41,185 nt of DNA from an uncultured Bacilli bacterium (GTDB taxonomy: Bacteria; Bacillota_I; Bacilli_A; RF39; UBA660). Positions 33,537-37,087 of the stretch are shown one piece after another. The notes under the pieces were generated by a model. That model was not told where the DNA came from. It worked only from the letters and a program-made list of their open reading frames with translations, and did not search any database. The stretch lies in NCBI GenBank assembly GCA_947628685.1, contig CANRAT010000002.1:1-41185 (forward strand). Reading direction: 5' to 3'. The translations under genes and the position numbers were made by a program. Within the stretch, counting starts at the first letter, position 1; every line of letters starts with the position of its first letter.

Positions 33537-34205
33537 ATGGACAAATTAAACATATTTGTAGATGAAACAGGTGAATTTGGATTTGGTAATGGTGCGTCAA
33601 AGTTATATGGTGTTTCATTTACTTTTCATGAGCAAAATGATGATATTATGCTTGAATTAAATAAACTAAATGATAGGTTAGAGAAAATTGGATATACTGA
33701 TATGATTCATATGGCTGACTTAATCATGAAAAGAAAAGATTATTCTAGATTTTCCATAGACAAAAGAAAAAGCATATTTAATTCAATATATCAATTTTCT
33801 AGAAAAATACCTGTAAAATATAAAACTATAATTATAGATAAAAAATATACCGATAATGGGAGAATATTAAGGCAAAAGATATCGATAGAAATTAATAATA
33901 TGGTTAAAGAACATGAAAAATATTTTAGCAAGTTTGATAGCATAGTGATGTATTATGATAATGGGCAAGAAGTATTAGGAACTATTTTAGATGCTATATT
34001 TTCAAGATATGAAGGTTTTGAACATAGAGTTGAATTTGATCATAAAGAAAAAAGATTATTTCAAGTTTCAGATATGCTTACTTATATTGATAAATACGAT
34101 TATAAATATAAAAATAAAATGCCTTTTACCAAAAGTGAAAAATATTTCTTTAATTTAGATGAAATTAGGAGAATATTAAAGGAGCTTAATAAAAAACGCT
34201 TTTAA
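33537..34205 (+). CDS. DUF3800 family protein
   Basis: LNIFVDETGEFG at the N-terminus is the DUF3800 hallmark (acidic DE(S/T)G). The size fits. The ATG at 33537 follows GAGGTGA. Confidence 0.65.
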   Translation: MDKLNIFVDETGEFGFGNGASKLYGVSFTFHEQNDDIMLELNKLNDRLEKIGYTDMIHMADLIMKRKDYSRFSIDKRKSIFNSIYQFSRKIPVKYKTIIIDKKYTDNGRILRQKISIEINNMVKEHEKYFSKFDSIVMYYDNGQEVLGTILDAIFSRYEGFEHRVEFDHKEKRLFQVSDMLTYIDKYDYKYKNKMPFTKSEKYFFNLDEIRRILKELNKKRF

Positions 34206-34210
34206 CCATT

Positions 34211-34238
34211 AAAAAAGCACCATGAAGGTTGCTTTTTT
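34211..34238 (+). terminator. Terminator after the DUF3800 gene
   Basis: AAAAAAGCACC-atgaa-GGTTGCTTTTTT. Confidence 0.55.
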
Positions 34239-34240
34239 AA

Positions 34241-34275
34241 GCGGCGCTTGGCGCCAACACGGGTTTGATCCGATG
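34241..34275. other. Isolated GC-rich palindromic element
   Basis: GCGGCGCTTGGCGCCAACACGGGTTTGATCCG contains GGCGC-ttg-GCGCC. It contrasts strongly with the AT-rich surroundings. Confidence 0.4.
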
Positions 34276-34723
34276 AATTAATTCAACAGACCAAGATGTA
34301 GATATAATAACATCTACAATATTATTATATCTATTCTACAAGTAAATTATACCAAACATATTTTTAAAAGTAAATATATAAGATAAAAATTTCTTGTTTG
34401 TAGTTAGTTATTTTACACTAAATATATTTAAAATGTCAATACATTTTTACTAATTTTCTAAGATATATTATTATAATAGTACTAAAAGTAGAAAAATAAA
34501 ATTTCTGTTTAAAAACAAGATTTTATCCTGTTAAAAATAAATATAATTATTTTTTGATATACTTCAAAATTGGGTAAAGTTTTTACTGCTCCACCTTGAA
34601 TATTCGTAAATTCTTCATTCGACATATATTATACTGTAAAAATATTGAAATTCTTTTTAAAAATTTGAAATTTTATAAAAAAGTTATATAATATATTAAA
34701 TTTATTGATTAAAGAGGTGTGAT

Positions 34724-37087
34724 ATGGATAGAAATGCTATAATTGAAACAATTAATAAAAAAACTATTGAAGCTAAAAATCTTATTGACGAAATTAGTAA
34801 TTTAAAAAAATTACTTACTAATTATGACAATCAATTGAAGCCAAGTTTTACAAATGAGGAAAAAGTAAATATTTTTATGGACTATTTTAAAGGTAGAGAT
34901 ACTATATATGCTTATCTTTCCATAGATAAAAGGGATTCAAATAAAAAGTATTATATACCTAAATGTGCGAACGAATGGAATAAAAATATTTGTAATAAAA
35001 CTATGGGTAAAAAGTGTAAAAATTGTAGATATTGGGTGGATAAACCAATAGATAAGGAAGTTATTAGAAATCACTTATTTAATAATGTCACTATAGGTAT
35101 TTATCCGATGCTAGAAGATGAAACTTGCTATTTCCTTGCTTTTGATTTTGATGATAAAAAAGATGAAAATAGCATTAAAGAAGATGTACTTGCTTTTGCT
35201 AGTGTATGTGATAAATATAATATTCCAATTGGAATTGAAAGAAGTAGATCAGGTAAAGGAATTCATGCATGGATATTTTTTAAAAACAATATAAAAGCTA
35301 TAACGGCAAGAAAAATGGGAAGCTTATTGCTATCAAAAACTATGGAGATTCGTGATAATTTAAAAATTGATTCTTTTGATAGAATGTTTCCTAATCAAGA
35401 TACTATGCCAAATGGTGGTTATGGTAACTTAATCGCACTTCCACTACAAAGTGAGCCTTCAAAATATAATAATACAGTTTTTTTGGATAGAAACTTTATT
35501 CCTTTTAATGATCAATATAGTTATTTAAGCAAAATTAGAAAGATGGATTATGATGATGTATGTGCTGTTATTAAGACATTATCCAAAAGTACTATAGATA
35601 TTAGCAGTGAAAATATTGAAATAAAAAATGAAATTAAAGATAAGCAAAAGAACAATTTTGATTTTCCAAAAAGTATAAGTGTTATTTTAAATAATATGGT
35701 TTGTATAGATAAGGCTAATTTAAGTTCTTCTGTTAAAAATTGCTTCAGAAGACTTGCAACATTTGCTAATCCCGAATTTTTTAAAAGGCAAAGGATGAGA
35801 CTTTCTGTTCATAATGTACCAATGGTAATAGATTGTAGTAAAGAGGATAATAAATATTTAATGATTCCAAGAGGAAAATTTGAATATTTATGTGAACTGT
35901 GCAACGAAAACAATGTAAAAATGAAAATTATTGATAATAGAAATAATGGTCAAAAATTAAATATAAAATTTAATGGTAAATTGAGGGATGATCAAAAAAT
36001 TGCATTAAATGAGATGTTAAAATATGAAAATGGAATACTTGAAGCTCCAACTGGGTTTGGTAAAACTGTCATATGCTGTAAATTGATTGAAAAAAGAAAC
36101 GTTAATACTCTTATAGTTACATTTAATTTATCACTATTAAAGCAATGGAAAGAAAGAATAAAAGAATTTTTAAATATTGATGAGGTAGGGCAAATTGGTG
36201 GTAGTAAAAATACTTTAACTAATAAAATTGATGTTGCAAGCATTAAAACTATTTATAATGATGGAAAATTTAATGACGTAGTTAAAAATTATGGAATGAT
36301 AATAATTGATGAATGTCATCATTCTTCTGCTTATACATATGAGGCTGCTTTAAATATGATGAATGCAAAATATGTATATGGTATGTCTGCTACTCCTGAA
36401 AAAGAAAACGGACATACACCAATTATTAAAATGCAATGTGGCAATATTAGATATAAAGTTAATATGAAAGAATATAACAAAAAATTAAATTTGTCGATGA
36501 AAGTTTATAGAAAAAATGTACATTTGAATTTTGTTAATAAAAATATAGCAGATTATAAAATTAATGAAATATATGATTTAATATCTAAAGATGTAATAAG
36601 AAATAATATTGTTATAAATGATATAGAGAAAGAATTTAAAAAAGGTAAAAATATACTTGTTTTAACTGAAAGAATTGAGCATTTAGAATATTTATATGAA
36701 AGATTATCAAATATAACAGAAAATATAATTGTATATCGTGGCGGATTAGGTAAAAAAGTAGTAAAAAAATATGATGAAATGAATTCATACATTATAGAAA
36801 ATAATGAAAATAAAATTATAATTGCTACAAGTTCATGTATTGGTGAAGGATTTGACGATTCTAGTTTAGAAGTATTATTCTTAACTATGCCTATATCTAG
36901 TATAAATAGAATAGTACAATATACAGGAAGGTTGCATAGAAAAAATGAAAATAAAAAAGAGATAATAGTTTATGATTATGTTGATGATAATTTTTCGATG
37001 ATTAGAAATATGTTTTTAAAAAGAAAGAAAGCATATGAAAAGGTTGGATACGAAGTTATTGAAAATAATTATCAAATGTCAATATGA
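34724..37087 (+). CDS. Archaeo-eukaryotic primase (PrimPol-like) domain fused to an SF2 DEAD/DEAH-type helicase
   Basis: AEP motifs: I FLAFDFDD, II SRSGKGIHAWIFF, III DRMFPNQD. The Cys cluster CANEWNKNICNKTMGKKCKNC lies upstream. Helicase motifs: I APTGFGKT, II IIIDECHH, III MSATPE, VI QYTGRLHR. Confidence 0.85.
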   Translation: MDRNAIIETINKKTIEAKNLIDEISNLKKLLTNYDNQLKPSFTNEEKVNIFMDYFKGRDTIYAYLSIDKRDSNKKYYIPKCANEWNKNICNKTMGKKCKNCRYWVDKPIDKEVIRNHLFNNVTIGIYPMLEDETCYFLAFDFDDKKDENSIKEDVLAFASVCDKYNIPIGIERSRSGKGIHAWIFFKNNIKAITARKMGSLLLSKTMEIRDNLKIDSFDRMFPNQDTMPNGGYGNLIALPLQSEPSKYNNTVFLDRNFIPFNDQYSYLSKIRKMDYDDVCAVIKTLSKSTIDISSENIEIKNEIKDKQKNNFDFPKSISVILNNMVCIDKANLSSSVKNCFRRLATFANPEFFKRQRMRLSVHNVPMVIDCSKEDNKYLMIPRGKFEYLCELCNENNVKMKIIDNRNNGQKLNIKFNGKLRDDQKIALNEMLKYENGILEAPTGFGKTVICCKLIEKRNVNTLIVTFNLSLLKQWKERIKEFLNIDEVGQIGGSKNTLTNKIDVASIKTIYNDGKFNDVVKNYGMIIIDECHHSSAYTYEAALNMMNAKYVYGMSATPEKENGHTPIIKMQCGNIRYKVNMKEYNKKLNLSMKVYRKNVHLNFVNKNIADYKINEIYDLISKDVIRNNIVINDIEKEFKKGKNILVLTERIEHLEYLYERLSNITENIIVYRGGLGKKVVKKYDEMNSYIIENNENKIIIATSSCIGEGFDDSSLEVLFLTMPISSINRIVQYTGRLHRKNENKKEIIVYDYVDDNFSMIRNMFLKRKKAYEKVGYEVIENNYQMSI

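Follow-up and report, generated by a model that had tools for sequence, protein, structure and literature searches.

In a 41,185-nucleotide (nt) stretch of DNA from an uncultured Bacilli bacterium (contig CANRAT010000002.1, positions 1 to 41,185 of the forward strand; hereafter the window), we identified an intact gene for a 787-amino-acid (aa) protein in which a primase-polymerase (PrimPol) of the archaeo-eukaryotic primase (AEP) type is fused to a superfamily 2 (SF2) helicase resembling XPB/Rad25. The protein is a new member of a known, functionally uncharacterised family, and its gene stands alone, with no conserved partner; we hold both the family identity and the stand-alone status with high confidence. 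The most likely role of the fusion, to which we give a probability of about one half, is that of a conflict (anti-phage or anti-plasmid) enzyme that acts through nucleic-acid synthesis and not through cleavage. The DUF3800 gene that lies upstream forms, together with an invariant structured element on its 3' side, a separate 1-kb cassette found in three unrelated chromosomal contexts.

Architecture of the primase-helicase fusion

The window has ~25% G+C across its length. The fusion gene (below also the helicase gene), its expression signals and its domains are laid out as follows:

34665-34692 (+): promoter-like site TTGAAA-16-TATAAT, upstream of the helicase gene
34713-34719 (+): ribosome-binding site (RBS) AGAGGTG of the helicase gene
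34724-37087 (+): AEP primase-polymerase / XPB-like helicase fusion, 787 aa, intact open reading frame (ORF)
34730-34828 (+): long N-terminal helix, aa 3-35, coiled-coil-like, predicted local distance difference test score (pLDDT) of 82-90 in AlphaFold2
34859-35560 (+): AEP domain (AEP-TOTE / CAPP_A-type), aa 46-279, PF22548 at 278 bits
34964-35026 (+): Cys4 cluster inside the AEP domain, aa 81-101
35672-35935 (+): compact alpha/beta domain before the motor, aa ~317-404, modelled pLDDT 55-91
35978-37003 (+): SF2 helicase/translocase core, XPB/Rad25-like, aa 419-760, matched by ResIII, DEAD and Helicase_C

The Pfam profile PF22548 (AEP-TOTE) aligns to the N-terminal part over model positions 1-227 of 230 (E 8e-83; 278 bits against a cut-off of 27). 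All three AEP catalytic motifs (DxD, sGxGxH and hD) are present, as FDFDD (residues 140-144), SGKGIHAWIFF (176-186, with SGKGIH at 176-181) and DRMFPNQD (219-226), and the predicted catalytic residues are D141, D143, H181 and D219. The C-terminal part is matched by ResIII (E 1e-28), DEAD (E 2e-12) and Helicase_C (E 9e-5) and carries GFGKT (444-448, Walker A), DECHH (529-533), SAT (555-557) and QYTGRLHR (732-739); SF2 motifs I, II, III and VI are intact, and they are invariant or nearly so across 87 homologues. A first-pass annotation of this DNA, made from the letters and a list of ORFs, had described the protein as an AEP primase-polymerase joined to a complete SF2 helicase, and every motif that it named is present in the order given. 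The coiled-coil-like segment that it placed at the N-terminus appears as one long helix (aa 3-35) in the AlphaFold2 model, while its cysteine spacing, C-x9-C-x8-C-x2-C, has to be corrected to C-x8-C-x7-C-x2-C (C81, C90, C98 and C101).

The AlphaFold2 model consists of the N-terminal helix, the AEP core, the alpha/beta domain and two RecA-like lobes. Sequence matches in the PDB divide along the same line: the AEP part matches the CRISPR-associated primase-polymerase (CAPP) of Marinitoga piezophila (7nqd/7nqf, E 2e-12), and the C-terminal part matches archaeal XPB (XPBII; 6p4f/5tnu, E 3e-23) and also Rad25 (2fwr). Foldseek searches with the model returned archaeal XPB first (5tnu/6p4w, E 1e-19) and then the XPB subunit of TFIIH. 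The alignments to archaeal XPB extend over ~480 columns and take in practically the whole of the 435-442-residue XPB chains, and for this reason the compact domain at aa ~317-404 probably matches the N-terminal domain of XPB, a correspondence drawn from the span of the structural alignments and not from a residue-level one. At the position of the XPB RED motif the window protein has KEN (ATPEKENGH against ATPERDDGK in XPBII); the consensus of its close relatives has REN and the Escherichia coli orthologue RRD.

Promoter-like sites as a class occur at chance level in the AT-rich window (43 found, 42.5 expected), and the support for the site upstream of the helicase gene is therefore its conservation and not its consensus match, even though it is the best on the plus strand (11/12). 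The -10 region and the RBS are conserved upstream of most close relatives. A promoter-like site that belongs to the helicase gene itself and is common to its close relatives is thus supported but not demonstrated. We also considered a conserved non-coding RNA or template upstream of the gene and rejected it, as close relatives share only the promoter-like site, the RBS and a small ORF on the minus strand.

The fusion belongs to a catalogued family

The family is already catalogued, as AEP-TOTE in Pfam, under a product name of the annotation pipeline PGAP, and as the CAPP-Helicase / non-CRISPR CAPP_A class. The CAPP-Helicase type was defined by Zabrady 2021, in which the helicase-bearing form is the most prevalent among the non-CRISPR CAPP relatives (PMC8211822). 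The best PADLOC match of the window protein is the profile for CAS-associated PrimPol (PDLC01465, E 1.4e-75), and NCBIfam NF040561 (CRISPR-associated primase-polymerase type A1) scores 96.3 bits, below its 200-bit cut-off. The E. coli orthologue (WP_000233452.1), 38% identical over aa 42-782, bears the PGAP name 'TOTE conflict system AEP domain-containing protein'. The first-pass annotation had mentioned primase-helicase fusions of this kind as proposed components of NTP-dependent conflict systems; such a family does exist, and both the Pfam AEP-TOTE and the PADLOC matches place the protein in it.

More than 5,800 database proteins match the fusion protein at E 1e-10 or better, and nearly all of the best 120 (61-99% identity) have the same full-length architecture. 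A search of 1.84 billion representative proteins with the AEP domain returned 5570 at E 1e-3, 2778 at E 1e-10 and 753 at E 1e-30 or better, the last being representative clusters of a family that ranges from gut Bacilli to soil bacteria. Among the 150 matches listed, full-length members measure ~720-1100 aa and nearly all have the AEP domain near the N-terminus. The AEP residues D141, D143, S176, G177, G179, H181 and D219 are invariant in 87/87 homologues (35-92% identity), as are K447, T448 and DECHH (D529-H533) of the helicase, which argues for selection on both enzymatic centres. Each cysteine of the Cys4 cluster is retained in 78-81 of the 87 homologues, and aa 1-40 are poorly conserved in the same alignment (conservation 0.29).

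TOTE systems take their name from TPR, OB, TBP and Effector (Aravind, Iyer and Burroughs 2022, cited through PMC12458937). At the window locus the effector-type AEP-TOTE domain is present, and the adjacent TPR-OB and TBP proteins are absent. Pfam scans of nearly every non-nested window ORF of at least 100 aa detected no TPR, OB/CSD, TBP or cas family, and tandem-repeat analysis of the window detected no CRISPR array. Across the 87 loci with a homologue, each of the TPR, CSD and TBP families accounts for at most one of the 255 nearest neighbours. The association with cas1/cas2 or an array that defines a CAPP is lacking as well, and the NF040561 score lies under the cut-off of that model. The window gene is neither a TOTE system nor a CRISPR accessory at this locus; the names 'TOTE conflict system' and 'CRISPR-associated PrimPol' apply at the level of the domain and do not identify the system at a given locus.

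The helicase gene has no conserved partner

We collected 99 loci with the full fusion, 87 of them non-redundant, from reference genomes, IMG/VR, metagenomes and exact-protein look-ups. A scan of genome contigs with query-specific peptide patterns gave 10 loci, and the diversity of the set came from metagenome contigs. Genes in the fetched loci were called by a simple longest-ORF heuristic, which may overlook small or overlapping genes or call spurious ones. The 493 neighbouring ORFs (four genes on each side) fell into 396 BLAST clusters, and Pfam profiling of two genes on each side revealed no conserved partner in the 87 loci.

The commonest neighbour families are AbiEii (5), HTH_3 (5 upstream and 4 downstream) and PIN_3 (4), followed by SLFN_AlbA_2 with HATPase_c_4 (4), Fic (3 upstream and 2 downstream) and AbiEi (3); PADLOC confirmed AbiE and SoFic among the upstream neighbours. 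Recurrent clusters comprise Fic (6 loci), tyrosine integrase (4 loci), AbiEii, AbiEi, PIN, RelE with a helix-turn-helix (HTH) gene, and RhuM. In the window itself the neighbours of this kind include AbiD and the remnant of a Fic gene. Farther out (three or more genes away, surveyed in 20 diverse loci), mostly housekeeping genes are found, with a few SNF2, ResIII and AAA_15/21 proteins. Integrases account for 1 of 119 near neighbours and Phage_integrase for 2 of 143 wider neighbours. Even close relatives of the window protein (82-92% identity) are located in differing contexts.

Two further observations concern single neighbours. A 553-aa protein that combines SLFN_AlbA_2 with HATPase_c_4 (the longest-ORF finder gave lengths of 486-556 aa) adjoins the helicase gene in L001 (12414-14075), L009 (12404-14065), L016, L020, L138 and L153, usually directly downstream; it is the sole neighbour that recurs beyond strain level, and it is absent from the window. 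Methionyl-tRNA synthetase (tRNA-synt_1g) makes up 4 of 143 wider neighbours (L108-L157), which may reflect chance or a lineage-specific location.

Phages, plasmids and E. coli islands

The fusion gene is almost absent from phages. Among the best 80 matches in IMG/VR only one (L025) covers the AEP part, there at full length, and the others match the helicase half; 3 of 50,697 phage records have weak partial matches to the AEP part. A homologue is carried by 118 of 72,556 plasmid records, mostly large plasmids in which it is annotated as 'DEAD/DEAH box helicase'. On the two plasmids that we examined, it lies among toxin-antitoxin, insertion-sequence and other accessory genes, with no annotated replication gene nearby; in Acinetobacter baumannii it comes immediately after HigB and a gene for a transcriptional regulator. 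A typed replicon of their own is present on at least two of the host plasmids.

The allele of E. coli O157:H7 was matched in 1730 of 5426 complete E. coli genomes, over at least 80% of its length in 684 (~13%); many of the matches represent only a 5' remnant with a pseudogene annotation. The gene stands first after an island backbone of tyrosine integrase, hypothetical gene, HTH/AlpA, YfjI (DUF3987) and inovirus-type Gp2/YfjJ, and its 1730 genomes compare with 2132 for the Gp2 allele. In the CP4-57 island of K-12 the same backbone is followed by abpB/abpA (abpA being an 'anti-bacteriophage protein') and then by rnlAB. This position after the backbone fits defence cargo; it equally represents a tight historical tie to the island family. 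A consistent location of homologues in prophages, integrative and conjugative elements or plasmids beside integrases, which the first-pass annotation had named as the competing outcome, does not hold in general (integrases are rare and phages are nearly negative), although it does hold for the integrase-bearing island of E. coli.

Other strains carry different contents at this site. In A2 and AH65 a 336-nt remnant of the fusion gene precedes a 1652-aa protein with NERD, protein kinase and SF1-helicase (AAA_11/AAA_12) domains (10521-15479 in the A2 locus, 8239-13197 in the AH65 locus) and a 478-aa protein; the arrangement looks like another defence-type system. In ZYB62 a remnant is followed by a transposase fragment, and CFT073 and ECCWS199 show no trace of the fusion gene. 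YfjK/AbpB of K-12 was considered as a candidate orthologue and rejected, as the match is confined to a 48-residue P-loop segment (E 0.002).

The DUF3800 gene is part of a separate cassette

The region upstream of the helicase gene contains the following features:

33448-33527 (+): 5' flank of the DUF3800 cassette, where the conserved block has its left edge (33448)
33486-33514 (+): promoter-like site TTAACT-17-TATAAT, a consensus match only
33528-34205 (+): DUF3800 gene, 225 aa from the GTG at 33528 or 222 aa from the ATG at 33537
34206-34450 (+): structured element directly 3' of DUF3800, four hairpins, the first of them terminator-like
34509-34625 (-): 38-aa ORF MSNEEFTNIQGGAVKTLPNFEVYQKIIIFIFNRIKSCF, its N-terminus resembling a double-glycine leader (MSNEEFTNIQGG...)

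DUF3800 is an RNase H-like domain (PMC7736814, PMC10910872) that serves as effector of type VII retrons (PMC7736814) and has been linked to a Cas12a2 branch (PMC10910872). Eleven unrelated RNA motifs, DUF3800-I to -XI, are known beside genes of this family (PMC5737381). The first-pass annotation had named the upstream gene DUF3800, and PF12686 agrees (E 1.4e-5; 26.2 bits against a cut-off of 21). Both motifs by which the family has been defined, DE and QxxD (PMC7736814), can be read from its sequence, as FVDETG and QVSD. The gene has 1047 homologues, with a length of 222-227 aa.

The cassette forms a block with sharp edges, from 33448 to ~34450-34467, that comprises an 80-nt 5' flank, the gene and ~245 nt downstream. 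It recurs in L015, a strain-level relative of the window, and in the human-gut loci L193-L200; only 33545-34376 is found in L201-L206. These last two groups of loci represent unrelated contexts that lack the helicase gene: in one the order is UDG, Amidase_3/LysM, DUF3800, a 193-aa gene and MBOAT, and in the other MMPL, ferredoxin, DUF3800, a 311-aa gene and PolC. The DUF3800 homologues in these two contexts are at 80-88% identity.

The best-conserved part of the 3' element is 34206-34376, within which a 33-nt core (34239-34271) is invariant: it is found exactly in 16/16 DUF3800 loci and is absent from 191 other loci, and IMG/VR contains 0 matches to it. The 171 nt that follow the DUF3800 stop codon are better conserved than third-codon positions, with identities of 91.8% against 75.2% to L193 and 80.1% against 60.4% to L201. 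The same four-hairpin layout is predicted in three lineages (folding z -4.7 to -5.8); RNAalifold found compensatory changes in 0 of 38 pairs, with only 4 distinct sequences compared. Neither the window nor four DUF3800 loci gave an Rfam match at gathering score, and none of the Rfam DUF3800 families matched at E up to 10 in 33200-34800. The element could be a new DUF3800-associated RNA or a site that acts at the DNA level, covariation being unproven. Two other candidates were discarded. Known RNA families gave only chance-level matches in the gap at E up to 10 (snoR26, mir-2985, twister-P3 and RNAI), and the GC-rich patch at 34239-34271 had been considered as a tRNA fragment or att site, but ARAGORN predicted no tRNA anywhere in the window, and the patch is part of the DUF3800 cassette.

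The gap between the two genes (34206-34723) measures the 518 bp given in the first-pass annotation, which had taken it to be non-coding; it holds the structured element, the 38-aa ORF, and the promoter-like site and RBS of the helicase gene. As the gap is composite, the cassette block independent and the expression signals separate, DUF3800 and the helicase gene are separate units. The proposed association of the two also failed to recur: DUF3800 is the upstream neighbour in 2 of the 87 non-redundant loci, namely the window and the 92%-identical strain L015.

The 38-aa minus-strand ORF is unrelated to the helicase finding. It has no Pfam match and is absent from L015, and a homologous 41-aa ORF lies in L001 (9751-9876, minus strand) beside an Rce1-like (CPBP) gene. 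The arrangement suggests a bacteriocin paired with its immunity gene, or what is left of such a pair, the bacteriocin-like reading resting on the GG motif only.

A turnover scar downstream of the helicase gene

Two copies of a direct repeat, 84.6% identical over 396 nt, flank the region downstream of the helicase gene:

36800-37190 (+): repeat copy A, the last 288 nt of the helicase gene and ~100 nt downstream
40709-41098 (+): repeat copy B, a frameshifted C-terminal remnant of a second helicase-gene allele and its downstream flank

Copy B reads ...SSCIGEGFDDFSLEVLFLTMLISSINRTVQYTGKMHRKNENKKETIVCDYVDDNF up to a stop and is then out of frame. The copies bracket a 3.5-kb insert with a small ORF, a truncated Fic gene, UPF0158, PRiA4_ORF3 and a 548-aa ORF. 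The remnant of a second allele and the bracketed insert show that alleles and cargo have been exchanged at this site.

Within the insert, the segment 37361-37820 holds a 66-aa ORF and, overlapping its end, an 88-aa fragment whose matches are confined to the N-terminal part of Fic/VbhT adenylyltransferases; the segment looks like a decayed Fic toxin-antitoxin pair. Near homologues of the helicase gene, Fic genes that are intact recur in 6 loci. Three co-oriented genes follow at 37992-40661, encoding UPF0158 (134 aa), PRiA4_ORF3 (199 aa) and the 548-aa protein, which has no match in Pfam, PADLOC or NCBIfam.

Possible function of the fusion protein

We consider a conflict role most likely because the neighbours of the gene are of the abortive-infection (Abi) and toxin-antitoxin kinds (AbiE, Fic, PIN, RelE/HigB), its distribution is patchy, its decay is frequent and phages nearly lack it. 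The position of the E. coli gene, where K-12 carries abpB/abpA, is a further reason. Precedent for defence by synthesis comes from DRT7, in which a CAPP-like PrimPol domain is essential for abortive-infection defence through DNA synthesis (10.64898/2026.04.18.719102). A gene that stands alone, keeps both active sites, travels in Abi and toxin-antitoxin company and occupies the AbpAB position in E. coli is a clean candidate for phage or plasmid restriction. Should the gene prove to act in defence, a motor-plus-primase mechanism would join the synthesis-based immunity known from DRTs.

As to how such an enzyme might work, we put forward an 'open and prime' mechanism only tentatively. The XPB-type motor would act as an ATP-driven translocase that opens a bubble in the target DNA or tracks along it, and the fused primase-polymerase would initiate strands on the single-stranded DNA so exposed and extend them. 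Template binding and self-association may be aided by the Cys4 cluster and the N-terminal helix. The product might then jam replication of the invader or serve as a toxic or abortive signal. The wider proposition, that the AEP-XPB fusion is a complete single-protein immune system of a new kind, protecting by unscheduled priming or DNA synthesis and not by cleavage or NAD/nucleotide depletion, and that, separately, DUF3800 and its element represent a twelfth class of DUF3800-associated RNA, is speculative, and we doubt that both parts hold together.

Several points weigh against a conflict role. XPB-type motors and PrimPols are classic enzymes of repair and damage tolerance. The E. coli gene is tightly linked to one island family, beside YfjI and a Gp2-type gene, which would suit a function in the island as well as it suits ancestral cargo, and the enrichment of toxin-antitoxin and defence genes among the neighbours is qualitative, having been assessed without a random-gene baseline. 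The AlphaFold2 model is of moderate confidence only (pLDDT 70; predicted template modelling score 0.51), with a poorly resolved Cys4 region. PADLOC places the protein in no validated stand-alone defence system, and we found no functional study of any family member in the literature. Moreover, non-CRISPR CAPP relatives are typically found in mobile elements (Zabrady 2021, PMC8211822).

Were the fusion a repair or damage-tolerance enzyme, its motor would act on lesions or stalled forks to open the DNA there, and re-priming, translesion synthesis or end-joining synthesis would fall to the PrimPol; the gene would travel as accessory cargo that improves survival of the host or the element. Such a role would suit a motor most similar to XPB/Rad25 of nucleotide-excision repair and the strict conservation of both active sites. 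PrimPols related to mobile elements perform translesion synthesis and microhomology-mediated end joining and raise survival after damage (AgaPP, PMC11724360), and the E. coli PrimPol-reverse transcriptase is reported to have a part both in an oxidative-damage response and in defence (PMC12439943). We nevertheless regard this role as unlikely: the distribution is patchy, pseudogenisation is frequent and the location varies even among close relatives, and the neighbours are mainly toxin-antitoxin and Abi genes rather than repair genes, with no Bax1-like nuclease, ligase or Ku among the recurrent ones. The tight tie of the E. coli gene to its island family leads us to keep an island-related role as a further rival, in which the protein would replicate or maintain an island or plasmid, the AEP priming the element and the helicase assisting origin opening. 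This appears less likely again. The motor is an SF2 enzyme of the XPB kind and not a replicative SF3, SF4 or SF6 helicase, and the gene is essentially absent from phage genomes. That it comes first after the integrase-AlpA-YfjI-Gp2 backbone, with remnants in most such islands (1730 against 2132 genomes), speaks for a function in the island, as does the pairing of a PriCT-DUF3987 protein with PrimPol as its helicase partner in the AgaPP module (PMC11724360); the CP4-57 backbone of K-12, however, lacks the gene, and many islands retain only remnants. Zabrady 2021 places non-CRISPR CAPP relatives mostly in mobile elements (PMC8211822), and 118 plasmid records do contain a homologue, but the plasmid copies lie among accessory genes, away from annotated replication genes, and at least two of the host plasmids have a typed replicon. 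A tyrosine integrase occurs within four genes in 4/87 loci; counted by family, integrases make up 1 of 119 and 2 of 143 neighbours, none of the relaxase, Rep and phage structural families is recurrent, and around the gene the window shows neither an integrase or relaxase nor a repeat-rich origin.

The two remaining alternatives are both highly improbable. One joins the DUF3800 RNase H-like nuclease and the AEP-helicase in a two-gene system, which would account for the adjacent and co-oriented genes in the window and L015 and would accord with the statement in PMC12458937 that TOTE systems often include RNase H domains, DUF3800 being RNase H-like. DUF3800 is, however, present in 2 of 136 upstream neighbours, both of them one strain-level locus, and its 80-88% identical homologues occur in two contexts that have no helicase gene; the edges of its block are sharp (33448 and ~34450), and the two genes are kept apart by a terminator-like hairpin, an unrelated ORF on the minus strand and a distinct promoter-like site. 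The other alternative, a canonical TOTE effector or CRISPR adaptation factor (a true CAPP), draws on names that match at the level of domains (AEP-TOTE in Pfam, CAS-associated PrimPol in PADLOC and CAPP type A1 in NCBIfam at 96 bits). It is contradicted by the NCBIfam score under the 200-bit cut-off, by the lack of any TPR, OB/CSD, TBP or cas match or CRISPR array in the 41 kb scanned, and by the presence of TPR, CSD and TBP in at most 1 of 255 nearest neighbours at the 87 loci. A TPR-OB/TBP pair encoded in trans may still lie elsewhere in the genome, beyond these 41 kb.

Other features of the window

By Pfam, the window contains chromosomal housekeeping genes at 1-13 kb, a SpaA-pilin/sortase cluster and a stretch of accessory genes. 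None of the scanned window ORFs matched an integrase, relaxase, Rep or phage structural family, and no repeat-rich origin was found near the helicase gene; the earlier view that this is not a standard phage or plasmid replicon agrees with these results.

The pilin cluster (14037-19509) consists of two large genes for SpaA-domain pilins, which contain internal 303-bp repeats, and a sortase, and a second sortase (32461-33324) adjoins the DUF3800 cassette. At 20487-23591 the window encodes an AAA+ ATPase (503 aa; weak IetA and DolB matches) and a UvrD-type helicase (512 aa; GajB-like, E 2e-45), a pair that could be another two-gene defence-type module. An AbiD/Abi_2 gene (PADLOC AbiD, E 5e-61) is followed by two co-oriented ORFs of 167 and 263 aa (29381-31728), neither of which has a family match above curated cut-offs. 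An Abi_2 gene is also located near the helicase homologue in the locus L011.

Comparison with known systems

The fusion protein resembles the CAPP-Helicase type of CAPP_A (PMC8211822; 7NQD/7NQF) in its AEP clade and in the order of PrimPol and then helicase. It differs in that the window locus is without cas1/cas2 or an array and that the NCBIfam equivalog stays below its cut-off. Biochemical work on CAPPs has dealt with the TPR type and with the CAPP_B type and not with the helicase fusion. With TOTE systems it shares an AEP that is near full-length on the Pfam TOTE AEP model (278 bits, positions 1-227 of 230); the TPR-OB and TBP genes that define these systems are absent from the window and from the 87 homologue neighbourhoods, the window gene being stand-alone. 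The C-terminal ~470 residues are like XPB/Rad25 in sequence and in predicted fold, including the domain before the motor. Unlike XPB/Rad25, this motor is joined to a primase-polymerase, the collected loci revealed no nuclease partner of the Bax1 type, and the gene is accessory and patchy, not core.

A CAPP-like PrimPol within one large polypeptide is also found in DRT7 (10.64898/2026.04.18.719102) and in the E. coli PrimPol-reverse transcriptase PPRT (PMC12439943), both of which act in phage conflict through DNA synthesis. Their partner domain is a reverse transcriptase, whereas that of the window protein is an SF2 motor, and the window gives no hint of protein priming. The module of AgaPP with PriCT-DUF3987 (PMC11724360) likewise combines a mobile-element-derived PrimPol with a helicase, and the E. 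coli fusion gene adjoins DUF3987 (YfjI). The AgaPP helicase, however, is separate and of the 5'-3' DUF3987 type, whereas the window's is fused and XPB-like, and no association with prokaryotic Argonaute was seen at its loci. In contrast to the primase-helicases P4 alpha, pRN1 ORF904 and D5, the family has no SF3, SF4 or SF6 helicase and no consistent location in phages, plasmids or integrative and conjugative elements, the E. coli islands excepted.

The neighbouring cassette differs from known DUF3800 modules in having no reverse transcriptase or Cas12 near the gene and an element that matches no Rfam family. It resembles them (PMC7736814, PMC10910872, PMC5737381) in that a DUF3800 gene with the DE and QxxD motifs adjoins a conserved, strongly folding non-coding element. 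This element begins with a terminator-like hairpin and lies mostly downstream of it, and the cassette offers a compact case in which to study what DUF3800-associated RNAs do.

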